This document shows, one piece after another, positions 21,144-50,086 of a DNA stretch of 64,000 nt (the first letter of the stretch is position 1; the number at the start of each line of letters is the position of its first letter). Source of the stretch: Mytilus edulis (lineage: Eukaryota); the NCBI RefSeq assembly GCF_963676685.1, contig NC_092351.1:44454001-44518000 (forward strand), written 5' to 3'. The position numbers and the translations under genes are program-made. The notes under the pieces are model-generated. The model was not told the DNA's origin. It saw only the letters and a program-made list of their open reading frames with translations, and made no database searches.

Positions 21144-22688
21144 TCATTGCAGTTTTTGTTTTGTATTCTTTTTCCAACAGCATATTTTAATACAATACTT
21201 AAGAAATAACTTAACAGAATATACGGCCAAAACTAGTCCGACAAGGTAAACTAGATAAACGTCTACCATAAAATATGAATACCACGGCATATCTAGCGAT
21301 GCTGGTCTGAAATGCTCTGACCCATACTTAGTCACCAAGTCTATCCAATAAGCTGCTCTTTGTCTTGGAGTTTGTGGACGACTGTGGAATATCTCAGATG
21401 CATTTTTAATGCTGAACATGAAAGTGCTGTTATGCACTACTTTATTGATGTTGTCAACTAATTCGTTCACAGAAAAATCTAAAATATCCATTGAAATTCC
21501 ATATCCTTTGTCTTTTATAACAGCTGCATTTGAGTTTTGATCAAGAGCAATTGGAAATGTAATCATTGGTACGCCATGGTATAGAGCTTCAAAGACGCCG
21601 CTCTTCCCACAATGAGTGATGAATAGTTTCGTTTTTACATGCCCAAGCAGATCATTCTGTGGTAACCATGGCAATAGTAATATGTTTCCATTTTCTTTTA
21701 CATAATCTCCACTACGAAATATAAAATTTAAATCCTTCATCTTTTGAAAGGCTGAAATTAATTTATTAATTATTTTTTCAGGGCATGTCTTAATTATGCT
21801 ACCAAAGGAAACAATTACTAAGCCATCTTTAGACTTCTCAACAAATGACTCTATCCTAGACATCAAAGTTTTAGAGGGTCCGGCTGCCAATCCACCACAT
21901 AAAATGGCATTCGAGGCAATGGAAATTGGATAATCCATTAAAATATCCCCGTTAATTATGTGTAGCAAAAATCTAGTTTTTAATTCGCTGTTTGACATAA
22001 AAGGCTTTTCTGGAACATATTTAGAGACAAGATATCCAAACGAAGGCATTGTGGGTTTGATAAGTTGATAAGTATACAATACGGTATTCATCATTCGTTC
22101 CCAGAAGGTCATTTTGTCTGTAAATCCTGACAAGAATGCCGGCATATAGGCAGGATTAAATGGCGTTCGGTGGAGATTTTGATCATAGATTGCAGAAACA
22201 AAAATGAAGGGTAATGAAAGTTTGTATGCTAAAATTTCGTAGCAAAGAAAAGGGCCATAATCAACGATGGCATAGTCAAACTTTGCAGCTTCTATGATTC
22301 CGAAGAGTTCATCATCGGTCGAAAACGAATGACAGTGATCATATGCATTTCTAAATAATTGAAGGAAGGGAAAATTCATAGAACCATTCATTGTCATTTC
22401 CAATATAGCTTGTACGTCGTCAAAAAAAGACGCTTTATCAAGACTGTTTGCTACTACAGACTTAATCGATAATCCCTTGGATCGTATTTCTTTGTCCATC
22501 GATGTTGAAAGCACAAATGTTGCTGAGTGATTGTACTTTTCTAATTCTTTTGTAATGGCCATAACAGGAGAGATATGACTTCTAAATTGGGCTACGAAAA
22601 CAATACATCTTTTACAGTCCACATTATACAGGTGTGTCGAAAATCCCATGGTCAGGGCTATAAAGGATGTTTTCCATCCATACGTCAT
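21144..22688 (-). CDS. UGT: UDP-glycosyltransferase (GT1/UDPGT family), copy 1, single coding exon, 514 aa
   Basis: Signal peptide; catalytic His in RSHISP; Asp in FDYAIVD; VSFGS; signature WLPQNDLLGH...THCG...EALYHGVP...DQ; C-terminal TM helix and KxKxx ER-retrieval end (KQKLQ). Splice acceptor ttttcttcag lies one base upstream of the ATG. Confidence 0.97.
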   Translation of the reverse strand: MTYGWKTSFIALTMGFSTHLYNVDCKRCIVFVAQFRSHISPVMAITKELEKYNHSATFVLSTSMDKEIRSKGLSIKSVVANSLDKASFFDDVQAILEMTMNGSMNFPFLQLFRNAYDHCHSFSTDDELFGIIEAAKFDYAIVDYGPFLCYEILAYKLSLPFIFVSAIYDQNLHRTPFNPAYMPAFLSGFTDKMTFWERMMNTVLYTYQLIKPTMPSFGYLVSKYVPEKPFMSNSELKTRFLLHIINGDILMDYPISIASNAILCGGLAAGPSKTLMSRIESFVEKSKDGLVIVSFGSIIKTCPEKIINKLISAFQKMKDLNFIFRSGDYVKENGNILLLPWLPQNDLLGHVKTKLFITHCGKSGVFEALYHGVPMITFPIALDQNSNAAVIKDKGYGISMDILDFSVNELVDNINKVVHNSTFMFSIKNASEIFHSRPQTPRQRAAYWIDLVTKYGSEHFRPASLDMPWYSYFMVDVYLVYLVGLVLAVYSVKLFLKYCIKICCWKKNTKQKLQ

Positions 22689-23157
22689 TCTGAAGAAAAT
22701 GAAATCACAAATTCAGTAAATAATAAATACAGTTAGACTAAATTTAACTAACAATTTTACAAGGGTGTTAAATCGAAATACAGAACTCACTTGATATCGG
22801 TACTATGTAAATCAAAAATATATCACAAAAAAAAAACTGTTGACCTATACCTTTCGCAGAATTTAAATGATAAGCTTAGTATTTTGGTGAGTTTTTTTAA
22901 TTGCTCTTGGATTAGCAAAATTCATGAATATTTCTATACTATGAATTTTCAGGTGACTTTTGTTTTAAAAGTACAGAAAAACTAAACACACGTATGAAAA
23001 TGTCCAAATGTTAAACTCAAGTTTCCAGGTTCAATTGGATATTTGTTCAAAAAAAACTAAAGTTATTTAAAATTAAAGTTGAGAGAACAATTGAAGGTCT
23101 TTCCAAAAAAAAAACAAGTATCTTGATATGAAAATAGTAAAATTTTGGTTTAAAATG

Positions 23158-24618
23158 TCAAGAACAGATTCAAATAAGAGCTAATAGTATGCTGATTTTA
23201 AAAAAATCATGGTTTCTATGCAATATTTTTAAAATAAGGTTGATAATTAAATACTTCTGGTTGAAAAATGTTACTTCCGGTATCATTTTACTGTTTAATT
23301 TACACTGTTTTCAAAATTATATTGTTCTATATACTTTTCCATTCTAAAAGTACAAAAATATAGCTACTTCCAGTTTCAATGGGGTTCCTTTATTCAAGGT
23401 CAAATGGCTTCCAACTGAATGCAAAAAGTCCCATGGCTTTATCATGTATACATATGAGGTAAAAGCAAAGGTCAAAATCTAAAACGTCAATTTAACCTCA
23501 ATTTCAAGGTCATCAACCAAGGACCTCAAATCAAAAGACCCTAGATCTAAATTATATTTGTTCATGAGTTATATCTCCATATGCATATTTTTAAATAATG
23601 AGGGATAAAACTCTAATTTGATGTAAGCGCACCCTTTAAGCCAATATGTATGTGTTACAACTTGTCGCAACTAACATTTAATAAAAATATGTTGTCGATA
23701 TCGTATATTGTGTTTGAAAAGTGGTGAAAATAGGCCAAAATACAAATTTAAAAATGACCTTGACCTTTGACCTTGTCCCTATTTTCTTCATGGGATTTTC
23801 GACACACCTGTATAATATGGACTGTAAAAGATGTATTGTTTTCGTAGCCCAATTTAGAAGTAGCTATTTTTTTGTTCTTTTTTAATGGAAATTTATATAG
23901 AACAATATAATTTTGGAAACTGTGTAAATTAAACAGTTAAATGATACTGGAAGTAACATTTTTCAACCAGAAGTATTTAATTATCAACCTTATTTTAAAA
24001 ATATTGCATAGAAACCATGAATTTTTGAAATCAGCATACTATTTTTCTTTTTTTTTTTTGGAACAAAGATCTCTACTCAAAAGACCCTAGGTCTTTATCA
24101 CTTATGGTTTACCAATTACAACTACATATTTCTTATTAAAAAATACAAAAGGGGAAGTAACTCCCATATGAAGTCTCCAAACCGCTTCGGTCAAAATTAT
24201 TTTGAAGATCATGAGTATATAACGAGCAAATTGGTGAAATAATTTTTTGGTAATCTTGAATGGTTGCGAAGGAGATTTGAACACAAGAAAAACAGTTTTT
24301 GGGGAGATAACTCTTACAATAAAAAGTGTTCAGCTTAACAGGGTGAGTTTCAAAATTGTATTAACTGTTCGATATCTTACACAAAAAATTTGAGCGACAT
24401 CTTGCGTAACTAAAAAGCACCGTCAGAAAAATGTGGTGGAAGAAGAAAAAAAAATAATCAGAAGAAAAAAACCAAAAAGTCTTTCCACAGAAAAGTGGAA
24501 AAACCTAATAATAATCAGAAGAAAACCAAGAGGTCTTCCACAGAAAAGTGGAAAAACCTAAATAATAATCAGAAGAAAACCAAGAGGTCTTTCCACAGAA
24601 AAGTGGAAAAACCTAATT
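23158..24618 (+). mobile_element. HINE-like element in the UGT1 upstream intron, with an internal rearrangement and triplicated terminal hairpin unit
   Basis: gaccttgacctttgacc-type body. The unit aataatcagaagaaaaccaagaggtctttccacagaaaagtggaaaaacctaa occurs three times (about 24453-24617). Inverted arms at 23185-23370 and 23857-24042. Confidence 0.65.
23789..23861 (+). repeat. Inverted 73-bp copy of UGT1 coding sequence (22578-22650)
   Basis: 72/73 identity to the reverse complement of 22578-22650. Confidence 0.95.
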
Positions 24619-25336
24619 ATTGGAACTTATACAATATAAATAAAAAGATGTTGTATGAGTGTCAATGAGACAACTTTCCACCTAGGTCACAATGTATAAA
24701 AAGTTAAAAATTATAGGTCTAAGTACGGCCTTCAACACGGAGCCTTGGTTAATATTGAACAGCAAGCCATAAAGGGCCCCAAAATGATTAGTGTAAAACA
24801 ATTCAAACAGGAAAATCAATGGTGTAATCTATATAAAAAACGAGAAACGAGAAACACCTATGAACCACACCAGCAAACGACAACCACTGAACAACAGGCT
24901 CCTGACTTAGGACAGCATATAAATGCAGCGTGTTTAAACGTTTTAACATGCGCCAACCTTCACTCTTACCTGAGACAGTAGTCTAACATTACAAAATTCC
25001 ATTATAAAAGACACACTATAAAATATCAATTGAAATGGCTTAACTCGATTAAAAAGACATTTAAACAAAAACAAGAAAACATACACTGAACGAATAAGTT
25101 TGATCTACGACACAATATAAATACAATATGAAAACGTAGATCTCTATGTAACATAGACGTTACAGTACGGAAGTAAAAAAAAATTACAAAATAAATTTGT
25201 TGTTCAGAGTAAGATTACATAATTGAAAATTTTTCGTCATACTGAATAACTGTCAAAGGTGGTACATACTAAAAATAGTGAGACGAGATAGAACACAAAA
25301 TAAGTAAAATCTGAATTAAAGAAACGCATTACAAAT

Positions 25337-25561
25337 GAGGGCCCTCATGGGGTTTTTGATTATGTGATTACTTGGCCGTTTTTTTAATGATTATTTGATT
25401 ATTAAGCCAAATATTTCATGATTATTTGATTACCTAGGACTGTATTTTTAGTTTATGATTATTTGATTACTAAAGATAAGCAAATATTTAATGATTATGT
25501 GATTATATTGGCAAAAAAATGGTGATTATGTGATTACTAGGACCCCCCCATGAGGGGCCTC
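25337..25561. mobile_element. 225-bp MITE, GAGG...CCTC ends, 6-bp TSD
   Basis: TSD acaaat at 25331-25336 and 25562-25567. TIR GAGGGCCCTCATGGGG / CCCCATGAGGGGCCTC. Interior built from tgatta repeats. Confidence 0.9.
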
Positions 25562-26571
25562 ACAAATGGTGTTAACAAGTCAAATTAACACGAAAGTACA
25601 ATTTTTCAGGTTGTACTGAAAAATGCTTCTAAAAATTGGTTTTCAAAGGTTAGAAAAATTACCACCAGTAATGCAAGTCTTAGATATCAATTCATATTGT
25701 TCAGCATTTTTTAGACGTTTCTATCTACAATTGTCTATCCTGTTACTGTAACCATTGTAACAGGTAAGACATACCAGGATAGACAAATGTCTTCATTTTT
25801 GATTGCTGTTGTGAAATAACTACTCCGTTTGGTGAAGTGATAATGTTTTTCTGTTGTGATTTTGGTTTCCAATACGTGATTGCAGTGTTTACAAGTATAC
25901 TTTTGGTGTAATTAATCAAAATGTTGGTAACAGCATAGACAGGGAAAAAAGTACCCTCTATGTTTCTTCACCAAATGTCTTGAAACACTAGCGATCAAAA
26001 AAGGACTAAATGAAATGTTAAGGTTACTTTGCACTTTTGAAATCAACGCTGACTAATTTAATATTCATAGAAATAATAAATTAACGGCTGATTTAAGTAG
26101 CAGCAACAGGATGGACATGAACCTCATGTACGCTGATTGAATTTAGTTTGTAGACAAAATACATATAATAATGAAGAAGCTTCAATTTTTCGTTAGAGTT
26201 ATTATAAACGTTCTTAAAGAGTCCAATTTGCAGATATCTAGGCGATCAGAAAATCGAAAAAAAAATCGTTTGAAATTTGTTACTCTGACACTGTACGCAC
26301 ACAAATAACCAAAAAATCGTACTGAAATACATTTTAATCTTATCAAAATATATGTAAATCGTGTTTATTATTAATGTTCTGAATCATAAATCCTACTAGC
26401 TTTCATTTAACCAATTACAACTGAAATTTCCATTAGAAATTTAAAAAAAATTAGCATTGGTGTACTTATAATTCGACATTTTTTAAAAATGACCCATCTA
26501 TGTCGATCTAAATTCATGCGTTATTGTTATTATTCAGTTTGGCCTTTTTTTTTAAACTTTTTTGGATTCGA

Positions 26572-26615
26572 GCGTCACTGATGAGATTTTTGTAGACGAA
26601 ACGCGCGTCTGGCGT
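26572..26615 (+). ncRNA. Minimal type I hammerhead ribozyme motif (stem II damaged) in a PLE-associated short repeat
   Basis: GCGUCA-CUGAUGA-gauuuuuguagac-GAAA-CGCGCG-UC-UGGCGU; stem I pairs with wobbles and stem III is palindromic. Confidence 0.65.
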
Positions 26616-26750
26616 ATATATATAAATTTAGTCCTGGTATCTATGATGAGTTTATATTCAATATTTACAAAAATATATAATGAATACTTATGAATTATTA
26701 TTCAAGTAAATTAAAAACAATAAAATATTTGTTTGGCTGATTATTAGGAA

Positions 26751-26808
26751 GAAACTTACATAAATGATGTTGACCGAGGATTTCTGTTTGAAAACCTACT
26801 CTTAAGTA
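26751..26808 (-). promoter_or_regulatory. Putative non-coding first exon (3' part) and splice donor of UGT1
   Basis: Minus-strand donor GTAAGTTTC (26759-26751) is conserved at the homologous position upstream of UGT2 (42001-41993). Flanking homology includes tctatgtcgatctaaat and gaaaacctac.cttaagt. Confidence 0.6.
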
Positions 26809-28005
26809 CTCCAGTATCAGTCAGCTTACATACACCAGGGAAGAGACTTTATACTAACCTCGGTAGCCGTACTAATGCGCACGCAATATAATTAGATAAA
26901 AATAGATTTTTGAGGGGATTTCTTATGATCACTTCCGGAATCCAAGCTTTCGCGCTGTTTACGAATACAAGAAAATCTTAAGACTTCTTAAAACAATCAA
27001 AATGATTACTTAATCTTTTAATATTTACCCTAGTAAAATCAGTAAAAAATATCCTTTTCAAATATGCTATGAGTTGATCAAGCTTGATCATGATGTTCTA
27101 TTATATTCGTATTTACCTACAAGGGTTTAAAATAATGAATTAGTTACTTCACGATTAAAGGCCTATAAATCCTGCATTTTAAAAATACACTTAATAAAAA
27201 ATATACTGGTAACCTAATAAATGAAACAAAATCATGCTAAATAAAATATTAGGTATCTAGGTCGGTTGAGTAGGAGTTGACGAAGGTACGAATTGTCGTT
27301 TATCTTCAGTTTATCATTGATGGAAGAAGCTGGATTTGTAGATAGAAGTTTTTGTGTTCTGTTCAATTGTTCCTTTTAAAATTGTATACGATGATGACTG
27401 ATGTACCCATATTTTGACTATTTTATTTATTGTGTCTGTTTAGTTAACGCATCAATGTAAATATAACGGAATTTGATGAGACGGTCATCAAAGTGAGAGG
27501 ATTAGCGCTATAAAACCAGGTTTAATCCACCATTTTCTACATTTGAAAATGCCTGTACCAAGTCAGGAATATGACAGTTCTTGTCCATTCGTTTTTGATG
27601 CGTTTTGTTATTTGATTTTGCCAAGTGATTATGGACTTTCCGAATTGATTTTCCTCTAAGTTCAGTATTTTTGTGATTTTACTTTTTGCTTTAGTAAAAA
27701 GTGAATATCATAGTCAGTTGAGATTGGATTCCAACTCACTTGCCATGAATGAGCCCCTAGAAACACAAGACTAGGAGTGAGACTTGCATAAAGTCTATGC
27801 ATTTTAATTGATTATTGTGCTATTCAGCTACTGGCCCCCGTAAAAAGACCACTTTCAAATTCATGCACTTTCTGGTAAATTTCGTGTTCATTTTATTAAG
27901 TTACAGTAAGGACTGATTGTAAGACGATATGGTTAATACCGATTGACCTTGGGTCAGCCGATGTAAATTAACTCATCAGAGATACCAGGACTTAATTTTG
28001 TATAT

Positions 28006-28049
28006 ACGCCAGACGCACGTTTCGTCTACAATAGACTCATCAGTGAAAA
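28006..28049 (-). ncRNA. Minimal type I hammerhead ribozyme motif (core and stem II intact, stem I weakened)
   Basis: Minus strand: UCA-CUGAUGA-GUCUA-uug-UAGAC-GAAA-CGUGCG-UC-UGGCGU. Confidence 0.7.
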
Positions 28050-28971
28050 TCGAATCCAATAAAGGCAAAAGAAAGCACGAAGCCGAACTCATTCATTAAG
28101 GCAATGATTTATCTTGGAATTTACTTAAATTTGTCATACATTATTGCTTTTTACAAAGGTGAGAAAGACACAAATTCAATAATATTTTGAGATCCAAAGG
28201 CACTTAGTATCTTGTTTTCTGGCTTAAATTTATTTTTTGAAGCCAAGAAGGTACTCTTGCTAGCCCAGTATTATATGTAAACAAAAGAACTTGAGTCACT
28301 CTAGTAGTCAGCTAGGCTATCTATAAGAAAACAATCTTGAATCATCGTAATCATTCTAAAGTCAGTTAGCACTTCCAAAAATCAATTAAATTTGATTCAC
28401 AGGTAGTACATGAAGATAAACATAGAAAACTAGTTCACCATACAATATTCAGACCAAAAATATTTACTCTAAATTCAGGAAATGAATAACATAATTTACT
28501 GTTTATATTAAGGATAAAAGTGGATAAGTCTGTTTACAAGTTACTTAAATAATCCATGTCTTATTTTTATCAAAAGATACTGATACAGATCATGTCAAAA
28601 ACCAACTAGTATTAAGTTGTGCAGTTAACAAAAGAATGTTTTCAGATATATGTATTAACATGATTTATGTATGATTCATTGCTGTTGCTGTTTTATCCAT
28701 GAGCAGCCTTTGTTGGGGCAAAGAACATGAGACACATGATAGAAAAAGGAACATAAATGCTTCCTGCTATGAATTAGACTAAGATAATGAGCCATTCTAA
28801 TTAACAGGTTGACAGTTATACAGGAAGACAGGTCACTCTACAGATATGTATTGCAATTCTTAAAAAAGGGGTACAGGGTAATCACATTAGAGCACAACAT
28901 AAAAAAAAGCCATCAACTAGGTTTTAATTCAGCATGTGTTGATATTTATTGGCCTGTTTTGTAGATATTAG

Positions 28972-29115
28972 GAAAAACAGCACAAAATTCAGTGGAAGGA
29001 TTATGAAAATGATGGACTTCTGCCAGACAATCCATACATTGTTTTATCAGTAGAACGATATAAGTGTCATTATGGACCTGATAGAAATAAGGCAAAAAAG
29101 AACAAACCTGAATCT
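28972..29115 (+). CDS. CaRF-like (MULE DNA-binding) exon A, transposon-borne
   Basis: EKQHKIQWKDYENDGLLPDNPYIVLSVERYKCHYGPDRNKAKKNKPES then GTAATT. Resembles CaRF LMWK...DGIPFV...CQYGPRR (recalled). The acceptor may instead be at 28965, which would imply a frameshift. Confidence 0.6.
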
Positions 29116-30139
29116 GTAATTTAATATTTTCATCGGTTTAGAAAAAGCAATATAACTATATTTTCAAAAAAACAACATTATTTATTTATACAAGCTTGAT
29201 AAACAGATGCATGTCTTGGCAGACTTTCCAAACCATAACTTATAATGAGTTCAAATTTATGTTAAATATAGATTCTTACATCGTCTGAAGTATTATTTGA
29301 TAATAAAAAGTTAGTGTATGTTATGTACTTAAAAACTTCATATAGTAATTGCTTTAACTAGTGTAGCTTTTTAAATTAAACTCCAAATAAAGTTCTATAA
29401 CTGGTTCCTTGCCGTCTACGTTTTGTAAGCAGGCGGAAATGGTTTTGTATTTAATTTTGTGACAACTCAGCCCACGGCCATCTCGCACCTTTCAAACACT
29501 CTCACTAATTATAACAACTTGCATCGTTTTATCAAACTCGCATCACTCAAAATAAGAAGAAATATAACAAACTCGAAGAAATATGTTTGATCATTATATT
29601 GTTTTCTTCTTCTCTTAGTAAATTCCTCCTTTCTCGGAACACTGACAGAAGAACTGACAAACTAATCAAATCCATCAACATAATGCATAAGTGCATTAAA
29701 ACAGTGTGAAAAACACGAACCCAAGCTGTGTATCACCATAAACATTTCAAGTTATCCTTCAAGCTACGCTCGTGTGGGTTTTTTCTAGTATGCTGTAAAT
29801 ACACGTATTGCGACTTATAAAACCATTGTAGTTTTTAATGTATATTGTCAAATTTAACATTATTAAACTTTTGTTCTATAAGTAGCTTCTGATTTGTTTT
29901 ACTTAAGGCAAAATACTGATTAAAATTTTTAGAAGATATTTGCTAAAATTTTCTTTTGAAAACGTGAAGAATAAGTATGAGTTGGTTAACTAATGTACTG
30001 TTTATATGTTGGGAATGTAACATATAAGATGGTTCTCTATCCAAATTTAACACACATACTCGAACATTTTAAATGTTATATGTGTTAATTTTATAACTAC
30101 AATGCAGTTTAAAAAGTAAACACTTTTTTTCCAATTTAG

Positions 30140-30250
30140 GTTCATGACCATGTTTATGGGAAAATTTTGTTTTTAATTCAGCCAACCAAGAAAATGAATT
30201 GTCCTGCTACAATTATTGCCCAAGAAGTTATTTTTGTCACAGACTATATG
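30140..30250 (+). CDS. CaRF-like exon B, transposon-borne
   Basis: ttttttccaatttag then VHDHVYGKILFLIQPTKKMNCPATIIAQEVIFVTDYM then GTATAA, phase 0-0. Matches the CaRF-type KxxCPAxI...FPxY motif. Confidence 0.7.
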
Positions 30251-31656
30251 GTATAAACCATTCAAAGTTCTGTCGGAAACATTGATATCAGTCTTGATCA
30301 GACATTGAGTTAACTTAAATCACACTTTTTGATATATTTATTTATATATATATACTGATAGAATATAAAAAGACGAACAGCTATGGTGTAATCACACATA
30401 AGTTTAACCAACAAATTCATATAACAAAGACAAACACAAAACAAGATTAACCTGTCTGTAGTGGCATTCCGGATGGCATCACCTACACAATAAAGTGAGC
30501 TAATAGTATCCCATACTAAAAGTGTATCAATTTCAACTGTTAACTTTATATGATATTTTTATTTCCTTTCTGATCAATGTAAGCTTAAAAGTTAATCCTT
30601 ATAAATTATATATTGCTTTAAATGAAAACTGATGAGAACTTGAGATCCTACATTCTGTTGATATTATTTACTTATATTTTGGCATAGCGCATGATCATGC
30701 ATTTATAAGTCTTCACAATTAATTCATTGAATGTGTATTGATCGGTACTTAAGTCTGGGAGATTTTGATTTATTAATTAGTTGTAAACGGCTTTGAACTA
30801 GCTGTCTGTATCTACTGATATTTTTGTGCTTTGTGTCTATTGTGTTTATTTCAGTTGTTTTTATGCCTTATACCAATCTTTTGAGTTAAGTCAATTGCTA
30901 CTGATTTTTACAGTTTGTTCTTATTATGTGATGCAACATGACTGTCCAAGGTTAGGAGAGGGTTGAGCACTCAAGAACATGTTTAACTGTACCCCACCAC
31001 AAACGTTATGTGCTTGTCCCAAGTCAGATGCCTGTAGTTACGTGATTGGTTTTGTTATGAATCAGGCGATTAGTTTTCTCAATTGAATTGTTTCACATTT
31101 TTGTATGTCGAACCTGTTATAGTGTATATACAGTATGTGTTTTTCTCATTGTTGAAGGCCATATGGTTACCTACTACAGCTAACATTCACTTCAATTGAA
31201 CTTTAGTGGATAGTTGTCAAATAGGCAATCATACCACATATCATCATTTTTATATTCATTAGTGAACTTTTATCTAACCTTACAAAAATATCGGGTGACA
31301 GAGGATTTGATTTTTGATAATCAAAATGTGATGCATTTCATCCATTCTTTCTTCAGGGAAAGTGGGGAGGGAATGATTATCTTTGCATAGATTTTGATTG
31401 GTCTAACTTTGGCTGTATGATGTTTTTGAATACATCTTACTGTTTACGACGTTCATTAAAATTCAATTCACATTTCAATGATTAAATGTTTGTGTGACCA
31501 CAAGGTCAGCTCCAAAATTATTGAATGTCGTAGCCTTAGATCAACAGAAATTTTGACTATTTAAAAAGGGAAAATACTATCCAGAAATAAAGACTGGAAA
31601 ACTGAGGGTGTAAGAAATTGTTAACTAAAATAACATAAACAGTACCAAATGTTGCT

Positions 31657-31700
31657 GCACCAGATGCACATTTCGACAATCAATGTCTCTTCAGTGATGC
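31657..31700 (-). ncRNA. Minimal type I hammerhead ribozyme, apparently intact
   Basis: Minus strand: GCAUCA-CUGAAGA-GACA-uugau-UGUC-GAAA-UGUGCA-UC-UGGUGC. Stems I and II fully paired; AUC cleavage triplet. Confidence 0.75.
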
Positions 31701-31903
31701 TCGAGACCAAAATATTTGAAAATTCAAAGCCTATTAAAAGGATAAAGAGCTATAAACCAAAAAGGACAAAATAAAAAAGCCAACAGCCGGGCAAATAATC
31801 AAAGCTTTGCATGAGGGAGATTATATTCCTTGGTTTAAAACAATAAAGTTGTATTGCAAACTATGGGAGAACAGGTATAAATATTTATCATCTTTTATTT
31901 CAG

Positions 31904-32053
31904 AAATCTGTTTCAAAGTGGCAGCGTGAAAACATTTCAAAAGACATTGAAACTGGCATGACGGACGAGAAAAAGCTTAATCTGAATATGGACAAAAGAT
32001 TGGTGATCAAACTGCCAAAAAAAGAAGAACATAAATTCCATTTACAAGGAGAG
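31904..32053 (+). CDS. CaRF-like exon C, transposon-borne
   Basis: tcttttatttcag then KSVSKWQRENISKDIETGMTDEKKLNLNMDKRLVIKLPKKEEHKFHLQGE then GTCAGA, phase 0-0. LPxxxxHxxH as in CaRF LPTQQAHQYH (recalled). Confidence 0.7.
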
Positions 32054-33957
32054 GTCAGAGTTATTTCATCCAAATTAATTATTATATATTTTTCAATATT
32101 CACTAGAATGTGATATTCATCAGTTTTACTTCAAAAAACCTGCGATATAATAACTTTAACATTCAACATAATAAGTTTTGGATGAATGTTTTGTATAGTA
32201 AGGCAATTCAAAAGATTAAAAAGCTTTACACTGTATTTACAATTCATATATTTTCATTGCCTTTGAATTGTTGTCAAACATAGAAGTTACAAAAACAAAT
32301 GAACTTTAGTTCTTTTGTATTGAGGAAATCTATGTATAAGCAAAAATTGTCGTTCCTGTAATTGAACACACTATTGCTTTTGACGTAAAAGACGAAAGAC
32401 AAATGAATTTGTGACATGCTATAACCATTTACAATAACAGTATTAGGTTAGGAAGAAATCATTATGAAAATGTAATTATTGTGTGTGTTTTGTTTGAAAA
32501 AGGAATTATTTTCATCACATTAAAATGGCAACTATATTTCTATAAATTTCATCTGTATAGTAAATTGATCACTCAACATATTTAATTTTAAAATTTTACT
32601 TTTATTTTAAAAAAAACATGACTTTCAACAAATTGGAGTCAACATTTTTTCATATGTTACTGAAAATGCAGGCTATCCAATGTAACATCTTGGAAAACAA
32701 TTCAAGATAAAAAAGATCAATTAACTAGTAAGTAAAATTGCAATACAAACAGTTAGTAACCACCAAAAATATGTTTACAGTGACAGTATTCCCAACCCCC
32801 CTACCACACACCCACTACAAATTAAACCCATCAAATCACTGATAAATCAGACTGTATAATTCAAATTTAATTTCAATAAATTATATATGTATTATCGACA
32901 ATAAATACTACTAGTTGATGCTACAAACCTCTTCTAATCAAATACGGTTTGATCTGAAATTGGAACCTATCCGTATAAAAATTGTTTTACATTTTCGGGA
33001 ATATCCCAGATATAAATAGATTTATATATAGCGCGCTACCGAGGTTAGTAAAAGTCTCTTCCATACACCAGGGTACCCGTAAACGGTACTATTCATTCTT
33101 CCATAGGCGACAATAGTAACATTTTCTAAATTTACCACTTTTTAAGATAAAAACCTGGATAAAACAGTTATATGTTGTGTTAGTACTTTATTATTCTGTT
33201 TTAAAAATTAAAGCCAAATAGTATCATGACCAACTTCCAACGGAGCTTGTTTATGTTATCCATGCCCACGGTCATTTTGCACTAAATTAATGAAATTTTG
33301 GAAGTCTTTTCGAATAATTCTCTAGAAAATATTTCAAAAGGTTTCAAAATTTATATTGTAAATATACACACTGCAGTTATTCATAGATAAATCAAAAATA
33401 TATTGTACCCTTACATCCAATCACAGCGCTCCTAATTTGACTTCCTTCACCTGCCTTGGGTACACAAAAGCCAACCTAATGCTGGGAAAGTTTAATACTA
33501 CCGTTTTCCCTAAAACTGTCGTCTATATCACAACATCGTTAATTAGGTTTAATTGTGTCAAATTTCCAGACCTTTTTACGACTTGCTACAGAGGATAAGG
33601 TAAACATACCAGACAGCATCAGACAAATTTAACACATAACTTTATTTTATGTCTTTGAAAGCATATTTTAAACTCTCAGTCACGTTTTGAATCTTGGAAG
33701 CTAATTACCTGCTTTATGGTATATCTAATAAACAAAAAAAAGTTTTGTAAGAACTTGAGAGAATAAATATGTATTACTGTCAATACAGACGCCTTGAAAT
33801 CTGCATAGGTTTAGAAGGACACAACGTTGTATAAGTTTAAAAACAAAATAAGTGGACGTTATTAATGTTATTACAAGAGGCTCTTCCCTCTGTCCTACTG
33901 TAACAATGGACAAATTCACTTTTACATCATTCGTTTGTCGGTTTTGGACAATAAAAT

Positions 33958-34141
33958 ATGTTTAAACTATCATTCGATCATTTGAAAAGCAAGCTGGAAA
34001 AGTGCGATGCTTGTTGTAATGGTGACTATATATCATTTCGTTGTCCACTGTGTCCGCTGTCGAAATACGAACCAAGAGGAAAGGCAAAGCTACAGCTACA
34101 TCTTGCAGTTCACTGGAATACAAGAATCCAAGGAAACAACG
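33958..34141 (+). CDS. First exon of a Zisupton-like transposon protein (CxxCC plus CxxC-x14-HxxxH); later exons missing
   Basis: MFKLSFDHLKSKLEKCDACCNGDYISFRCPLCPLSKYEPRGKAKLQLHLAVHWNTRIQGNN followed by donor G/GTAATT. Pattern resembles recalled N-termini of fish Zisupton-type proteins (CxxCC..CPFC..F.P.....HL..H). Confidence 0.6.
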
Positions 34142-35134
34142 GTAATTTAGTTTTCTGAATAAATCACGGAATTTAAAAAAATAATAATATCGTCTTATGA
34201 ACATCGCTTTATAAAAGACAATCTCATTTTTTAAAGCGATATTTAAAGAATTTACTATGATCAATTAAGTAATAGTTAACAATTTTGTATACATCTATAT
34301 GTATATTTGGATTCCTGCACCAGGTAAAATTTGAATACGCCAGAAGTGCGTTTTGTCCACACAAGACTAACCAGTGACGCTCAGATGCCAAAAACAAATA
34401 CAAAGTTGAAAGGCACTGAGGAACAAAATTTCAAAAAAAGTTGTGACCAGAGTTTTCTGCTTGGGATAAGAACATCCTTATTATATAGAATAATTTATAC
34501 TTTTGCAAAAAGTTAATTTTATAAAATGACTATATAATGGATATACATGATGAAACCGAAGTATTAACTGACTACAGAATAAAAACGAATACATTACATA
34601 AACCAACATAACCCAGCACAAAAAAATATCCAAGTTAGCCAAAGCCTCAACGCATAAAGTGACGCCACATTTGAAATTATAAAAAAGCACATGAAGATCA
34701 GTGCTACATAAAGATATTACTTTTGTGTAAAACTATTTCTAGTTCACTTTAGATAATGATTTCCGGTACAGTGGTGTCTTTCTGGTATACTATTGGACGG
34801 GTATGCTGATGCCTGTACGCTGACTGATGCCTCTTCTTAAGTATCATGTAGTGTATGGGGTATAAATGGGGTTTACATAGCGCATTATTAATAATAAACA
34901 TAAAAGTTAAAGAATAGAAAAATATAATAGCCAGTAAAAAAAAACAATTTACAAACTAAACCCCCAACCCTCCTGTCCGTATTTTATTAATCACAATTCT
35001 TATAGTTTATGTAAACTAAAATCTTTACAATTGATATTAAACCTGTAAGGATTTTGAATAAACTGTATTTATTTTCTAAATGCGCAGTGACAAATAAATA
35101 TTGCATGCATATTCAGGACGAGTAAATATGTATA

Positions 35135-36148
35135 CACCGTTTATCATCAGTACAGCGGATATAGGTATTAACTAAGCGGGCGTGAGCGATTTTGGCCTTA
35201 CACGGTAACGAAAATCTTCGTTTTGTTCACATAACATGCATAATATCAATGTGTACTTCAATCTAAACATAATTGTTGTTTTACGAAATGATTTGGTAGT
35301 AGGTTGATGATTAGAGATTTCTCATTATTTTCCAAAACAAGAACGATTACTAAAAGAGGGACGAAAGATACCAAAGGGACAGTCAAACTAATAAATCTAA
35401 AATAAACTGACAACGCCATGGCTAAAAATGAAAAAGAAAAACAGATAAAACAATAGTACACATGACACAACATAGAAAACTAAAGAATAAACAACACGAA
35501 CCCCATGTGCAAATACTTGTCAAAGAAGTTGCCACTCGTCTCATTCGATATAATTCTATTTTCATTGCAACTCTTTTTCTGTGTGTAATAAGTATAGCTG
35601 TTTCAATAAGTCGCATTGAAATTTTTCATACATATGTTAATTTTAGATTTTTTTTATTCCGAAAAGAAGTGCTGTGTGCGGTGTTTAGCTGATAAAATAA
35701 ATCCTTCTGTACGGTGCATAGTTAAGATGCTGTACACCGTACACAAAAAAAAACATTTTCATACTCGTTTTTTACCCAAAATGTTTCAAGGAATGAGTAA
35801 TCATAGGTAGGTTTATGATTCGTAACTATTTCTATTGCCCTGTATTGACTTTCTTTCAGATAAAACATGTAAATGTATCGACAACTGTATCGAAATTGAA
35901 AGTTGGTGTTGACATTCACAACTGTTTGCGCATGTACAAGTTAATTGTTCTTATTAGAATATCAAAGTTGTTTTATAAATAGGAAAAAATCAATGCGAAA
36001 ATTATTTGGGAGCAGGAATTTCAAATATTTAGAAATGTACACTGAATATTGGTAAGGCAAAACAAAGATTTCCGTTACCTTGTAAGGCCAAAATTGCTCA
36101 CGCCCGCTTGGTTAGTACCTATATCCACTGTACTGATGATACACGGTG
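35135..36148. mobile_element. ~1-kb non-autonomous TIR element, ~95-bp TIRs, TA flanks
   Basis: ta-CACCGTTTATCATCAGTACAGCGGATATAGGTA...GGCCTTACA pairs with TGTAAGGCC...TACCTATATCCACTGTACTGATGATACACGGTG-ta. Confidence 0.85.
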
Positions 36149-37329
36149 TATACTTATTTCAGTAATATAGTGCGGTGACGGAATAGGAAAAAAGTCGATT
36201 ATCAAAAGAGTTTAATTTCGCTTCATATTACACATCTTAAAACTTGCACAGTCTTTGAAAATTATTTTTTCTTCAATTTAAGATTAGTCGTCAAAAATTC
36301 GTATGGTGTAGTTTTTTATATAAATAGCCGGTAATGTACCGTTGTTTGTACGAAATTTTGTGTGAAGTTTAGGTATTCAATTCAAACAAGGCAAGTCCTC
36401 TGATTTTTGTTCAATGTAATGTTCATTGAAGCCATGAAGGACTTATGATTAACCAACATCTCATCCTTGTGAAGTGATATGTTTTTATGTGAGACTACCT
36501 GAGTGCTTATTTCTTACCAATTCTTTTACAAGACACTCGTAGTAGTACGATGTACATACAAAGACAATATTATTTGAAGCTTTGTCCGCAGGAACAACAA
36601 CATACTTATCGTGAAGATATGATAGACATTTTACTGCCTCTTTGTCTCTGAATACGGACTTTGGTCGATATTACCGTATAATTTAGGATGTAAAATACCG
36701 TTTGAATAAGTTTTCTACATGTACATCCAAATTAACTAATTAAATCTTTGTACTTAGTAACGTTTTAAGTAAATCATGGTAACGAAATCCCGGACTTGAT
36801 AATTTAGCAGTGATACAATGCTTACGTTCGTTAAAATCTACGACACTACTACATACACAGGCATAACGAACAAGTTGGGATATATGAACACTGTATGATA
36901 GAGTCAACAGACCATCGAAGTCTTAACAAGAACTATCTTTAAAAAAGATATCCAACGTATTTAAATTTGAGTATATGTTTAAAACTATCATTTCGATAAC
37001 CTTCAGAAGCACAAAGATACCATTTAAATAACGTTTTCTCTGTTTGTGTTCAGTATTCTCGGTCCTCGTATCTTTCTGTTTACATTCCCCTAAACCCCGC
37101 GGAAATCTCACATGCGTAGGTGCGTTCTAAAAGTCATGTACGTTCGTACAACAAGTTTACATTAAAAATTATATAATTGTCCCGAATAAACAGCTGTCAC
37201 GGATGCAAAGAGCTATTGGACAATTGTTTTAATAAAAATATAAATCTTTGTAAGATCTAGTTCAAATATTTATAGTTTTTCACTTGCTTTCCATCACGAT
37301 ATAATTAACGAGACGTTTCTTCAAACACA

Positions 37330-37830
37330 ACCAAATCACCCACCATGACAGCATTTTGTCCAATCTCAGAAAGGATTTTCGAGCATGCGTATTCTGTTGC
37401 CATAGTTAAGCGTCCTTAAGTTCAAAGAGCACAAACCGAAACTAATACCGACTACGTCGGAAAAAAAGGAAAAATTAATAATAAGGAATGTAAAACCGTC
37501 TGTTTTGTCGACAATTTTAGTATGGAAATGTTTAGATTTAGAAATTGACATCTACTGCTGTTTATGCTGGTAGTATTTAAAATAAGTTCCTTTGCGTAAA
37601 TTTCGGTAGTATATTTAGAAAAATCTGGATTATCAAACAAAAATATATCATAGAGATAACTGTAAGGTATTGTTGAACGTATCAACCAAATGTAACAATG
37701 ACATGTTTTACTGAGTCGGTCATTAACTGAGACTCATAGCAATACAGGAATAAATCTGGTATTAAAAGGGTGCAATTAGTGTCAATATGAATACCTACAA
37801 CCTGTCAATATACTGCTGAAACGTACAAAT
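37330..37830 (-). mobile_element. Penelope-like RT relic (C-terminal RT motifs)
   Basis: TNCTLLIPDLFLYCYESQLM, YSYLYDIF (decayed YLDD region), EIYAKELILN, FHTKIVDKTDGFTFLIINFSF. Confidence 0.75.
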
Positions 37831-38769
37831 ATGTTGCCTAGGAGAATATGTAAAGCTTCAATCAAATCTTAACATTTCCATACATGTATATGAATAAAAT
37901 AAAATGTAGAGTACCCGTAAATAAGACGGCAACAAAACGACGTAATAAATCAAATGCCAGCAAATTTGATACATAATGGACAGTTTTTCGTTTACAGCAC
38001 AGACAAAAGAATGGTTTTTGCAACGATATGTTGTCAAGAAAAGAATCTACGAACACGATGAAATGAGACTGTATTGATATATATTTCTGCACAACAAAAA
38101 GACTTCATCCGTGTTCGTCTCATTCCAAATTGTGATAAATCAAGCTGTTTCTTGTGTTAAAAGATCTACATCTTTCATACAGGTCTTGCACTTGATCAAA
38201 TTTAACATGCCATTCTAAGTAGGCGCAGTTGCGTATGATTTCATCATTATTCTTATTTAGACGGGTTACTTTGACATTCCATTCTAAAGTAGACATAAAC
38301 GCGTATATTTCGCATTTTCATCCATAAGAGATGTTTACTTAGTTATACAGTGCACTTTGTTATACAAAAAGGACTCTGTTAAAAAAAAAAGGATTTCCAT
38401 GATAAAGAGTCCTAAACTGATATAAATTGTCGGATCTCCAAAATTCGGCAAATTCATGTCCGTGGGTGAGCAGTTTTGATTTACGTGAGATAATCAGATG
38501 CTTTATGTCGGGGTGAATGAACTCTGCACGTTTCCGCTTGTTTTCATAGCTGTCACCTCTGGTGCAATTATCAGAAGCAATTTTTCAATTATTATTTTGA
38601 GTTTTTACACTTTAAAGTTACTTGTTCAAATTCATATTTAAACAACGTTGATATAAATGTATCAGTATAACTATTCTAATATCATACATTTTGAAACAAA
38701 CCTTAGTGAAAATGGTCTTTGGTAACATTTTCAGACATTAGTTTGTAAAAATTCATAATACGCGTAGCT

Positions 38770-40317
38770 TTATTGCAGTTTTTCTTTTGCATTCTTTTTT
38801 CCACAACATAGTTTAATACAAAACTTCAGAAATAACTTAAAAGAATACACGACAAAAACTAGTCCCACAGCGTAGACCAGATAAACATCTACCATGAAAT
38901 ATGAATACCACGGCATATCTAGTGAGGCTGGTCTCAAATGTTCTGATCCATACTTAGTCACCAAGTCTATCCAATAAGCTGCTCTTTGTGTTGGGGTTTG
39001 TGGACGACTGTGGAATATCTCAGATGCATTTTTAATGCTGAACATGAAAGTGCTGTTATGCACTACTTTATTGATGTTTTCAACTAATTCGTTCACAGAA
39101 AAATCTAAAATATCCATTGAAATTCCATAAGCCTTGTCTTTTATAACAGCGGCATTTGTTTTCTGATCAAGAGCAATTGGAAATGCAATCATTGGTACGC
39201 CATGGTATAGAGCTTCAAAGACGCTGCTCTTTCCACAATGAGTGATGAATAGTTTTGTCTTTACATGCCCAAGCAGATCATTTTGTGGTAACCATGGCAA
39301 TTGTAATATGTTTCCATATTCTTTTTCATAATCTCCATTACGAAATATAAAATTAAAATGCTTCATCTTTTGAAAGGCTGAAATTAATTTATTCATTATT
39401 ATTTCAGGGCATGACTTAATTATACTACCAAATGAAACAATTACCAAACCATTTTCAGACTTCTCAACAAATGACTCAATCATAGATGTCAACGATTTAG
39501 CAGGTCCGGCTGCTAATCCACCACATAAAATCGCATTTGATGCAATTGGAATTGGATAATCCATTAAAATATCCCCGTCAACTATGTGTATCAAAAAACT
39601 ATTTGTTAGTTCGCTGTTTGACATTAAAGGCTTTTCTGGAACATATTTAGCGACAAGATTTCCAAACGAAGGCATTGTCGGTTTGATAAGTTGAATAGTA
39701 TACAATGCAGTATTAATCATACGCTCCAAGAACGTCATTTTGTCTGTAAATCCTGACCAGAATGCTGGCATATAGGAAGGATTAAATGGCGTTCGGTGGA
39801 GGTTTTGATCGTAGTGGGCAGAACTTAAAATGAAAGGTAATGAAAGTTTATATGCTAAAATTTCGTAGCAAAGAAAAGGGGCATAATCAACGATGGCATA
39901 GTCAAACTTTGTAGCTGCTAAGATTTCGATGAGTGTATCGTCGGTCAAAAACGAATGACAGTGATCATATGCATTTCGAAGTAATTGAAGTAAGGGGAAA
40001 GACCTGGAACCATTCATATTTATTTCCAATATAACTTGTACAAAATCATGTACAATTGACGCTTTATCAAGACTTTTTGCTACTACAGAATTAATTGATA
40101 TTCCCTGATATCGTAGTTCTTTGTCCATTGATGTTGAAAGCACAAATGTTGCTGAGTGATTGTACTTTTCTAATTCTCTTGCAATGGCCATAATAGGAGA
40201 GATGTGACTTCTCGATTGAGCTACGAAAACAACATAACTTTTACAGTCCACATTATACAGGTGTATCAAAAATCCTAGAGTCAGGACAATAAAGAATGTT
40301 TTCCACCCATACATCAT
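38770..40317 (-). CDS. UGT: UDP-glycosyltransferase (GT1/UDPGT family), copy 2, single coding exon, 515 aa
   Basis: Close paralog of copy 1 with all the same motifs: RSHISP, FDYAIVD, UGT signature, TM helix, KEKLQ end. Identical acceptor context upstream of the ATG. Confidence 0.97.
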   Translation of the reverse strand: MMYGWKTFFIVLTLGFLIHLYNVDCKSYVVFVAQSRSHISPIMAIARELEKYNHSATFVLSTSMDKELRYQGISINSVVAKSLDKASIVHDFVQVILEINMNGSRSFPLLQLLRNAYDHCHSFLTDDTLIEILAATKFDYAIVDYAPFLCYEILAYKLSLPFILSSAHYDQNLHRTPFNPSYMPAFWSGFTDKMTFLERMINTALYTIQLIKPTMPSFGNLVAKYVPEKPLMSNSELTNSFLIHIVDGDILMDYPIPIASNAILCGGLAAGPAKSLTSMIESFVEKSENGLVIVSFGSIIKSCPEIIMNKLISAFQKMKHFNFIFRNGDYEKEYGNILQLPWLPQNDLLGHVKTKLFITHCGKSSVFEALYHGVPMIAFPIALDQKTNAAVIKDKAYGISMDILDFSVNELVENINKVVHNSTFMFSIKNASEIFHSRPQTPTQRAAYWIDLVTKYGSEHLRPASLDMPWYSYFMVDVYLVYAVGLVFVVYSFKLFLKFCIKLCCGKKNAKEKLQ

Positions 40318-40489
40318 TCTGAAGAAAATGAAATCACAAATTCAGTTAATAAAAATATATAGTCAGAACAAGAACTATGTAACAAAAACTAGTGACCTAT
40401 ACCTTTAACAGTATTTAAATATTAGTTCCTTCTAATTTTGTCTACTGCCTTTGGATTAACAATATGTTATTGCGTATATATGAAATTTT

Positions 40490-40812
40490 GATCCTGGTAT
40501 CTATGATGATTTTATTTACAACCACTGGGTCGATGCCACTACTAGTGGAGATTTATTTCCCCGAGGGTTTCACCAGCCCAGTAGTCGTCACTTCTGTGTT
40601 GACTTCAGTTATCATTGATATGTTCATAATTGTAAATTAACTGTTAACAAAATTTGGAATTTTTGAAATACTAGGGCTTTTCTACCTCAATAGATTACCT
40701 TAGCTGCATTTGGCAAAACTTTTAGGAATTTTTGTTACTCAATGCTCTTCAACTTTGTACTTTATTTGGCCTTTTTAAAAAATTTTATTCGAGCGACACT
40801 GATGAGTCTTTT
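40490..40812 (+). mobile_element. PLE-associated short repeat with truncated hammerhead core
   Basis: cctggtatctatgatga...ttcgagcgacactgatgagtcttt; same family as 26535-26655. Confidence 0.6.
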
Positions 40813-41992
40813 AGTAACCCCCCCCCCCCCCCCCCCCCCCACCATATTTTCATCAGCGGGACTGATAGTTACCTAACAAATGTTAGAAATCGCTGTGTCC
40901 CATAAAAAAGTTCACAAGATAATATTTTTAAATAAGAACAAATTCGTTGCACCCTGTTTCGACCCTCAGAAAATAGTTAATGGCATCAGTTAGTTCTAAG
41001 CATGATCCCTTTGTTGATCATTTAATGCGGGGTTTTTTTACAGTTCCCAAATACTGTTGTTTGAGTAATATTTTTTCTAAAGATGTTAATCAACTTCTTG
41101 ATGAGATTATTACCTGTTTACATAATTAGTACATGTAATAAATGAGCTATTAATAACGGTTTAAATTCCTTGGATTATTATCCAGTCCTAGGTAATAATG
41201 TTGAGGGTTTTAGGATCATAAGGCAACCAACACATGCAACAACAATGCATAAAATAGGTATAATTTTGCGTTTCCATTTTGTAAATGTAAATCAAACGCG
41301 TAATCGAATAGTAAATCTTCAACGAGTTGTTATCCTTAATATTTATATAAGATTGTCGAAATTATTTGTGTCTCTCAATTATAAAAAATATATATTGTCA
41401 TAAATTGCATTGCCCAAAATGAATCTTTTAATGGAAATAAAAATATCGTATCTTATAAGATACAACGAAACATGAAAAATTCACAACTAGATTCAAAATA
41501 ATGAATATGTAAATGGTTAAACAGAATATGTTTGTAAATAAAAACATGCATATACAGATGGTTATACTGATTGGAATTTATAAATAAAACTAGATGTAAT
41601 CAACCATGCATAATATTGACTTCCTTCTGTATACTATAAAAATATATCAAAACTATTTGATGACTGCGAATTTTGTGCAATATTTAATTGAATAGGCTTA
41701 AGTGTTGGCAATTTAAAACACGATATCTTTATAAATATAAATGTACTCAAATTAAACTGCGTTTCAGGTAGGGCATAACTTGGTATCCTTTACTTTTTCC
41801 CTTTCTTCGATAAATATACCCTCTTGTGATCCTCGTTATATCAGTGTTTATATCCGTTATCTATGTCGATCTAAATCTGTGCACCGTTGTTATTAATCAG
41901 TTTAGTATTCAAACAACAATTTAATGGAAACTTAGGTTATCATTGAAGTAGATTCAAAACAGTAAGAACTTTGCCTGATTGGTTATAACTTA

Positions 41993-42113
41993 GAAACTTA
42001 CCGCAATTTGAGGTTGACATCTATAGGCTTGCTGCTAGAAAAACCTACACTTAAGTTTCGTTTAGTGTATGAGGGTATCTATGGGGTTTGCAGAATATTA
42101 TCAATAATTTATA
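41993..42113 (-). promoter_or_regulatory. Putative non-coding first exon and core promoter of UGT2 (uninterrupted version)
   Basis: Donor GCG/GTAAGTTTC at 42001 and minus-strand TATAAA at 42113-42108. Aligns to 26751-26808 joined to 34844-34895. Confidence 0.55.
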
Positions 42114-43033
42114 CCTAAAGATTCAAGAAAATAGCCAATAAAAAAATAAGGGGATTTCCCCAAAATCAAAAATTCTGTCCGTACTTCATTAATCGATAAA
42201 TTAATAAATTAATTTATGTAAATTGAAACTAAAATCTTGATAATTCCGATATATTTCTAAATGCCTAGTGACAAACATTGCATGCATATATATTCAGGAC
42301 AAGAAAAATGTCATATTCCAACAGTATACAACTACAGACTTTGTATAAATGACTTGTATCTAAATATGTCACACATTCGCCCAATAATATTAAGTTTACC
42401 GAAAAATGTGCCGAGGTTAGGGAAAATTCTTTTGCAAATAAAACTGATCTTTTTAAGGACTGACTGTAATACTTTTCTGTCAATGAAGAAAATCAAATAA
42501 CATAAAAATTGCGGTGCACACTGAATAACCTGCGTAGGCATTCCTTATAATTTAATTCTACATTCCATTTCAAACCGGGTAAATCATCGAAAATCGTTGG
42601 TTACGTCACGGTCACATGACAAAATTATGTCTTTGAGCTGATAGACAAGACACTATCAGCCAATTGAAAGACGCATAACATCCAAATTTAAATTATAACA
42701 TTATATCATAAGAATTATATTAATTTCTAAAATAACAATTATATTTATATTTTCTTAGAGAAAAAATAAGATTTAACTTGAATTGATTATTGTTTCGGAG
42801 TGTGCAAAAAGAACAATCGTTATTTTCATTTTATGATGAACTGTGGGTCTAGCTATTAATATGATTTTTTTAAATAAACCATGCAGTTAAAAAAAAACAT
42901 AGAGCCACATAGAGCTTTTCAACTTTTTTCTTTTTTGTTTCTCCTTTGCCGACGCTTAACATATATAGCAAAAAAATGAGTTTAGATATAAGTTTTATAT
43001 AAAAAGGATATATTTAGATGTTTCTTGGATATA

Positions 43034-48367: not shown

Positions 48368-50086
48368 TTAGTCCTGTTTTCGTTTGACATTCCTTTTTCT
48401 ATGGCATATTAGGGAACAAAGGTTTAAGAAAAGTTTAAAACAGGAAAATCCCAAGACTAGTCCAACTGCGATAAACAGATAAATATCGATCATATAATAA
48501 GAGTACCACAGCATATCTAGTGATGTTGGTCTGAAATGTTGTTTTCCATATCTTATTACCAAGTCTATCCAATAAGCTGCTCTTTGTGACGGTGTTTGTG
48601 GACGACTGTGAAATATTTCAGACGCCACTTTGATTTTGCGTAGGAACGTTTTATTAAACGCTACATTTTCAATTGTTTTAACTAGTTCGTCTATAGAAAA
48701 ATTTAAAATATCCATTGATATTCCATATCCTTTGTCCTCCATAATTGCAGCGTTTGCACCTTGATCGTGAACTATCGGAAACCCTATCATTGGTATGCCA
48801 TGGTAGAGAGCTTCAAAGACGCTGCTCTTTCCACAGTGAGTGATAAATAATTTCGTTTTGACATGCCCAAGTATATCATTCTGTGGTAGCCATGGCAACA
48901 GTAAAATATAACCTTTTTCTTTTTTATCATCTCCATACTGAAATATAAAATTCAAACGTTTTGTCTTTTGAAAGGCTAAAAGAAATGTATTCAACATGTG
49001 TTCAGAGCATGACTTAATTATACTTCCGAATGAAACGATAGCAATGCCTTCTATAAACTTTTTAACAAATGTCTCTATCAAAGAGGTCAAAGGTTGAGCT
49101 GGTTTTGTTCCTAAACCTCCGCACATAATAACATTTGGTGAAGTTAAAAGTGGATAATCAATTAAAAAATCGCCATCAATTATCTGTAGAATAAAGCTAT
49201 TTTTTAGTTCGCTGTTTGATATTAAAGGCTTTTCCGGAACATACTTGCTGACAAGATTTTCAAAAGAAGGCATTGTTGGTTTGATCAGCTGAATAATATA
49301 GGACAGGGAGTTTAAGACACGTTGTGCAAACGTCATTTTGTCTGTAAATCCTGACCATAATGCCGGTGTGGTAACGGGATTAATATACGATTCAGTAAAG
49401 AGTCATAATGTGCACCAATGAAAACAAACGGCAATGAAAGTTTGTAAGCAAGGATTTCATAACATAGAATACCAGGAGCATTGGCAACGATAGCATAGGC
49501 AAACTGTTCAGAAGATAAACGTTGGAAAAGCTCACCATCTGTCATAAAGTTATGACAATGTTTAGATGCTCGTTCCAATATTTGATAAAATGGAAAAGAC
49601 TTTGACCGATTCAATTTCTCAGCTACAACTTGTGTTACTATATCCATTGATATATTATCAAAACTGTTTGCTATCACAGATATTCCACCCATTCGTATCT
49701 TCTTGTCCATAGCGGTTGACAAAACAAATGTTGCTGAGTGGTTGTACGTCTCTAATTCTTTTAAAACGTTTAATACTGGCAAGATGTTACTCCATAATGC
49801 TGGAATTATAAAAACGATTTTTTTTTACCCTCTACATCATAGAGGGGGAATAGGAGGGTCTTGATCCCGAAATCCCGGACTTAAAAAAACGAAATCCCGA
49901 GGTCCCGTATTTAAATAAAGCAAATCCCGACATCCCGAAATCCGAAAAAAAGGATTCCCGGATCCCGAAAGGGTCAATCCCTAAATCCCGAGAGTCCCGA
50001 TAAAGGTCCTATCCCCCCTCATCATAGACGTACAACAAACATATGAGGGTCATTGTTTTAATTAATCTTTGACAATCAAACTTCAT
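48368..50086 (-). pseudogene. UGT: UDP-glycosyltransferase copy 3, disrupted
   Basis: ATG at 50086 behind a cag acceptor (MKFDCQRLIKTMTLICLLYVYD). MITE at 49842-50020 introduces a TAG. A9 run at 49818-49826 is out of frame by one base. Apparent 4-bp deletion near 49383 (CGT ATA TT AAT CCC versus R-T-P-F-N-P). The C-terminal 322 codons remain open with signature, TM helix and KRKQD end. Confidence 0.92.
49842..50020. mobile_element. 179-bp MITE, GAGG...CCTC ends, 6-bp TSD, inserted in the UGT3 signal-peptide region
   Basis: TSD atcata at 49836-49841 and 50021-50026. TIR GAGGGGGAATAGGA / TCCTATCCCCCCTC. Interior of (aa)tcccga repeats. Confidence 0.92.

Follow-up and report, generated by a model that had tools for sequence, protein, structure and literature searches.

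Transposons are known to insert 5' of detoxification genes. The Accord insertion at Drosophila Cyp6g1 is said to be a case of a transposon rewiring a xenobiotic gene, and the transport gene OsPT1 of rice reportedly carries a transposon insertion in its 5' UTR. The Mytilus edulis locus described here resembles such insertions in that a detoxification-type gene (UGT1) has an element at its 5' end and is still expressed. It differs from them in that the original promoter of UGT1 has been displaced by 8 kb and in that the insertion is apparently common to two species in opposite orientation. The apparent flip and a nested promoter candidate are unusual. Mutator-like elements (MULEs) make 9-bp target duplications and have terminal inverted repeats starting with G. 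MULEs are reported across molluscs (PMC10294476), Zisupton makes 8-bp target duplications (PMC12730594), Zisupton/KDZ relatives are reported from mussels (PMC9297572), and large indels are abundant in the genomes of mussels (PMC7653742). A search by title and abstract opening, with subscription journals and supplements outside its scope, found no paper on this locus.

The window, the whole analysed stretch of 64,000 nucleotides, includes three minus-strand UGT genes, namely UGT1, UGT2 and a frameshifted UGT3. The coding exons of UGT1 (21144-22689, minus strand, 514 aa, PF00201 E 3e-72) and UGT2 (38770-40318, minus strand, 515 aa, PF00201) are single open reading frames, and the PF00201 profile covers the whole protein in both. 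By this profile they belong to the UDP-glucuronosyl/glucosyltransferase family, and the detoxifying role is ascribed by family annotation. The UGT proteins of the window are 99% identical to named proteins of Mytilus galloprovincialis and M. edulis, and one UGT1 copy with an intact reading frame was found in the genome assembly. The coding sequence of both genes occupies one exon with an acceptor 1 nt 5' of the ATG, and exon 1 is therefore upstream and essentially non-coding. Intron 1 of UGT1 (22690-26759, minus strand) has its donor at 26759, which is used by the models P0031 and P0034 and matches an RNA joint to 26760. Exon 1 and the promoter of UGT2 (42001-42310, minus strand) served as the uninterrupted reference, with an exon of about 81 nt from its probable start; the donor at 42001 is the one used in gene model P0028, its sole support, the exon being outside the stretch to which contigs were aligned. 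Homologs of exon 1 near UGT3 or the upstream pseudogenes were not found, with none of six stretches scoring above shuffled sequences.

Non-coding exon 1 of UGT1 is split by a nested insert of about 8 kb. The UGT2 sequence at 41896-42056 aligned to 26646-26807 (70%, E 2e-9) and that at 42050-42252 to 34836-35037 (67%, E 3e-7), in agreement with the original prediction that the UGT2 upstream sequence is present at UGT1 in two halves, and an extra UGT2-like block was located at 35070-35131 (77%). The first half ends in a 49-nt 3' remnant of exon 1 (26760-26808, minus strand), which is still spliced to the coding exon, while the cut-off 5' part of the exon and the original promoter (34844-35131, minus strand) were delimited by alignment to UGT2. 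The halves are separated by 8,027 bp flanked by a perfect 8/8 target duplication, as CTTAAGTA occurs at both 26801 and 34836; the left copy (26801-26808) is inside the remnant and the right one (34836-34843) is its 8-bp repeat. At any one position such an 8-mer has a chance probability of 4e-5. The insertion point is 49 nt before the donor and the duplication spans 42-49 nt from it, which fits the predicted distance of about 45 nt. A 9-bp outer duplication, as the ninth base repeats too, and a TTAA target were considered and dropped once the ends of the outer family had been defined. The end sequences of the family and a 7/8 duplication of 8 bp around the C9 copy set the outer duplication at 8 bp. 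The target site has a palindromic core.

The insert consists of three layers, namely an outer element of KDZ/Zisupton-like type, a Mutator-like one flanked by a 9-bp duplication, and a MITE, and all three are coding-dead remnants. The inner Mutator-like element (26839-33062, plus strand, 6,224 bp) has terminal inverted repeats, contains other repeats and is flanked by a 9/9 duplication (chance 3e-6). These features, together with the C1 copy of the outer element, which represents the empty inner site, confirm the nesting that had been predicted from the sequence. Remnants of three exons of an ALS2CR8 + MULE-type transposase (28999-29118, 30131-30247 and 31883-32068, plus strand) were 76-90% identical to P0033, of which the element covers only the N-terminal 132 aa; the catalytic part of P0033 had no match in the insert. 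P0033 itself scored above the cut-off for ZSWIM1-3 RNaseH-like, while its MULE match, at 27.2 bits, fell just short of the cut-off (27.6). Of 60 short frames searched with Pfam, 31 came from the insert, which gave two ALS2CR8 matches below threshold, and 29 came from the C9 copy, which gave one reverse-transcriptase match, the rest being weak noise. The inner element is thus MULE-like in its 9-bp duplication, its G-starting repeats and its exons of an ALS2CR8 + ZSWIM/MULE protein, but its repeats are short (about 35 bp well matched) and catalytic exons were not found in it. The pattern of its left repeat had no second copy in the genome assembly, and no literature was found on ALS2CR8 together with transposases. 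The high-copy MITE (33081-33515, plus strand) has 26-bp terminal repeats, a trimmed left tip and, in several copies, TA flanks; it takes the place of some 120 bp of outer-element sequence and is 96-97% identical to at least 39 other copies among those listed. A Helentron origin for 33081-33515 was considered and dropped on account of the terminal repeats and TA flanks.

The outer element is divided into a left end (26809-26838, plus strand, consensus start CACCAGT), which holds the left 9-bp duplication of the inner element (26830-26838), and a remainder extending to the right end (33072-34835, plus strand, consensus GCCTCTC), as delimited by family copies. GCCTCTC terminates all six other right ends of the family and CACCAG or CACAAG opens its other left ends. 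The C9 copy is the only other one with two ends. The family is rare, with about 13 loci bearing an end in 1.37 Gb by our tally, and the interior of the element was found in the genome assembly at one other locus and an unplaced duplicate at 75% identity. By eye, no obvious common target sequence was seen in the flanks of the other copies. The first coding exon of a KDZ-associated protein (33906-34143, plus strand), with a short insert near its start, persists as a remnant in which 49-50 of 58 aa are identical to P0043 and P0044, which represent near-identical copies of this first exon in M. trossulus and in a further assembly of M. edulis. P0044 has a CxC4 domain above the cut-off, and CxC4 is associated with KDZ transposases. 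The top Atlas match was also CxC4 (0.89), which is a lead only. Like Zisupton/KDZ elements, the outer element has an 8-bp target duplication and CxC4 in a cluster mate of its remnant protein. It differs in being non-autonomous, with a length of 1.8 kb when the inner element is left out, in having inverted repeats that are subterminal (24/32 match from base 8) with unlike outermost 7 bases (CAC... and ...CTC), and in the lack of a KDZ catalytic domain linked to any copy examined. Protein pieces from KDZ loci did not match the outer part of the insert or the C9 copy, and none of the 30 matches to the KDZ transposase profile PF18758 in the genome assembly was at a known end of the outer family. 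The element is called KDZ/Zisupton-like here, as no more than a putative member of the group with the catalytic domain unlinked and the repeats subterminal.

Expression was followed in 24 listed runs, all as contigs and with run type guessed or unrecorded. Between 0.81 and 0.87 of UGT1 coding words were present in 14 of these runs (7 studies). Contigs of four runs from four studies were aligned to 26600-40780, runs X15-X20 with small shares being left out. This stretch lacks the UGT1 coding exon, and UGT1 contigs consequently align across on the UGT2 coding exon. A joint from 40318 to 26760 was present in all four runs and, as it falls at exact splice sites, represents spliced RNA. The contigs differed from UGT2 by 179-181, 56 and 53 letters where 180, 57 and 53 were computed for UGT1, and this agreement to within about one letter identifies them as UGT1-type. 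The animals behind these contigs therefore express the gene and splice it from the UGT1 donor at 26759, so that exon 1 is no longer putative, and the suggestion that UGT1 is silenced is unsupported for the gene in general, the carrier status of the animals apart. It is very improbable that UGT1 is silent in all carriers and that the RNA comes from a near-identical paralog, as the assembly has one UGT1 copy with an intact reading frame and the contig differences match UGT1, even though the old promoter has been severed and changed. Contig depth was 21-845 for UGT1-type and 3.6-30 for UGT2-type sequences, which allows no ranking of the genes as the runs were found with UGT1. The unique interior of the insert had near-zero contig cover, which proves nothing either way. 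A metagenome scan gave one match, to a 53% GC contig otherwise unlike the window and attributed to chance, and a viral scan gave none.

The explanation we favour, with about even confidence, is that an old KDZ/Zisupton-like insertion rewired UGT1 and that transcription now starts in or beside the gene-proximal end of the element. The transposon would have entered non-coding exon 1 before the species split, an age suggested by M. coruscus protein models, and would later have been flipped in place in one lineage. The UGT1 start would have moved to the gene-proximal end, with the 49-nt remnant still spliced to the coding exon from the donor at 26759, and the expressed alleles would carry the insert. 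A candidate core promoter is a TATA-like word in the left terminal repeat of the inner element (26847-26853, minus strand), which at 26853 is 30 nt before a possible start near 26823. With 3 such words per kb on the same strand of the insert, this one is a weak candidate and a lead, and the right terminal repeat has the same word short by one base. A promoter in the transposon end, as the original prediction allowed, is a plausible candidate. In UGT2 a TATA word lies at 42113 and a CCAAT word at 42139, and both are changed in the cut-off promoter of UGT1. A weak point in favour of rewiring is that no compared UGT1-type protein begins at the in-frame ATG that an empty site of this haplotype would have.

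The 5' ends of the contigs were compared with simulated contigs. Three contigs stopped within the 49-nt remnant, at 18, 34 and 47 letters, while the contig of run X2, the deepest (depth 844), carried 78 letters ahead of the acceptor, 55 aligned and 23 unplaced. Plain read-through aligned all 78 letters and a start at 26823 would give 64, both of which count against the rewiring proposed here. Contigs cannot mark starts. A flipped allele aligned 71 or 39 letters, UGT2 exon 1 aligned none at the UGT1 exon (default scoring), and an empty allele gave 49 letters plus 38 at 34835-34872. Only one of the six simulated 5' ends, an upstream exon ending at 37001, gave exactly 55 letters.

The X2 contig bears on two other explanations. 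A possible but less probable one is that the insert is polymorphic, the expressed alleles being empty or scarred and using the original promoter and the assembled allele being a weak or null one. The 78 letters are near the 73 predicted from the UGT2-homologous start by our count, a 6-nt scar with 23 flank letters reproduces 55+23 exactly by post hoc arithmetic, both duplications are perfect, and low coverage and hemizygosity characterize 36.78% of the reference of M. galloprovincialis (PMC7653742). Set against these, X2 depth was only 2.3 in the 34835-34872 bin where an empty allele should align, the empty-allele joint was absent from the best 15 of 241 joints, the flank promoter is without TATA and CCAAT, and M. 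coruscus would then call for a second insertion unless the polymorphism is trans-species. The second explanation, which we consider unlikely, is a fixed insert bypassed by a new upstream exon joined to the AG at the end of the element (26810-26809). The simulated exon ending at 37001 supports it by its exact 55 letters, but that site was chosen after the fact and has a weak donor (3/6), pyrimidines make up 47% of the acceptor tract as compared with 76% at real acceptors, of 595 stronger donor-like sites 30 yield a chance extension of 5-7 letters in one or more of three scoring schemes, and no such joint was among the best 15 of 241. Splicing around the insert, as originally suggested, is feasible only through such an exon and this weak AG, while clean intron-like removal fails as GT..AG ends occurred in none of ten equivalent cuts.

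For the rewiring of UGT1 by an old insertion, age and orientation were judged from M. coruscus gene models (CAC5399669-672), whose accession order fits this UGT cluster. Residues 1-66 of the predicted protein P0034 correspond to the interior of the outer element (87-90%) and are followed by its right end (10/12 aa, where the intact left end gives at best 5/12), the exon remnant and the UGT coding sequence. The neighbouring P0003, with identical coding sequence, likewise begins in the outer element. The element pieces of P0034 match the plus strand of the window and the gene its minus strand, a pattern indicating that the element is reversed relative to the UGT in M. coruscus. The junction is without five codons expected from a clean flip, and was either trimmed or has an intron placed there by the model. 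The opposite orientation costs the rewiring explanation an extra event, and P0034 is a predicted model. At least 10 base changes per 210 separate the element copies of the two species, which exceeds the M. galloprovincialis heterozygosity of 1.73% reported in the same source (PMC7653742) and makes the insertion look old. It likely preceded the split of M. coruscus and the M. edulis group, judging by these models, and the window copy, in which both tips are kept and the duplication is perfect, probably represents the original arrangement. PMC11241113 gave no date for the divergence of the two species that could be used. First-exon copies such as P0043 and P0044 occur elsewhere, and similarity alone is therefore no proof of common descent. 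A young private allele, the first reading and one then held somewhat above even, was lowered after gene-model comparisons including P0003 and P0034.

Two independent and opposite insertions of a target-preferring family at one site, with regulation differing per lineage, appear quite improbable. Such a history would be consistent with the palindromic core of the target, close subfamily members in three species and same-site repeat insertion described for Drosophila (PMC5932611), but the family is rare and its other copies, by eye, share no obvious target. Without target preference, the odds of two insertions within 20 bp are near 2e-7. With about 13 family loci known across 1.37 Gb, a single ancestral insertion followed by a flip would be the simpler history under these models. 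That sister species drive the same UGT from opposite ends of one flipped KDZ element, with the nested Mutator repeat giving the TATA here, is a more specific and doubtful proposal.

If the expressed alleles were empty, the insert would be one of many mussel insertion polymorphisms and the reference allele would misrepresent the UGT1 promoter. The flip at one site between species, if true, would document KDZ behaviour of a kind rarely recorded in animals. Were the start now inside the element, the locus would offer a dated two-species natural experiment in transposon promoter replacement at a detoxification gene of a farmed bivalve.

The third UGT gene of the window, UGT3 (48368-49824), carried a frameshift, and the 5' part of its coding sequence was shifted away to approximately 50021-50086; its relatives of full length in other mussels included the proteins P0008, P0036 and P0041. 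Two further broken UGT copies (loci L072 and L074) were located close outside the window start (G000:C8:44426151-44448268) and had the same acceptor as UGT1 and UGT2.

A long KDZ-associated protein belonging to the subfamily of the outer element, the KDZ/Zisupton-like transposon that interrupts exon 1 of UGT1, was annotated in Mytilus assemblies other than the M. edulis assembly G000 and in two Logan contigs (P0043-P0046). A search for this type of protein in G000 identified fragments only, and presence-absence variation is possible. The second two-ended copy of the outer family (L112:810-9022, contig C9 of G000) was 8.2 kb and similar in length to the window insert, while its interior was unlike that of the insert and included a reverse-transcriptase remnant. 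A left end of the family was also located within a duplication of approximately 30 kb (L113-L117, G000:C1:85.99-86.03 Mb), together with an ORF of 430 aa that resembles an opine dehydrogenase and may encode one. The MITE at 33081-33515 within the outer element was part of a tandem array of 1,668 bp with near-identical units at G000:C1:45.40 Mb (L015-L017) and on contig C162.

Within UGT1 intron 1, positions 23789-23861 were an inverted duplicate of the UGT1 coding start (22578-22650; 73 bp, 99% identity), enclosed by an element with long inverted arms (93%). This copy looks like a captured host fragment, and through it the UGT1 pre-mRNA could fold back.

Approximately 260 bp 5' of the old UGT1 start lay an element of 1 kb (35124-36159) whose inverted arms measured 102 bp; the promoter homology between UGT1 and UGT2 ended at this element. 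The severed part of exon 1 included an ATG (34844-34846) in the UGT1 frame, which in an empty, insert-free allele would give UGT1 18 extra residues.
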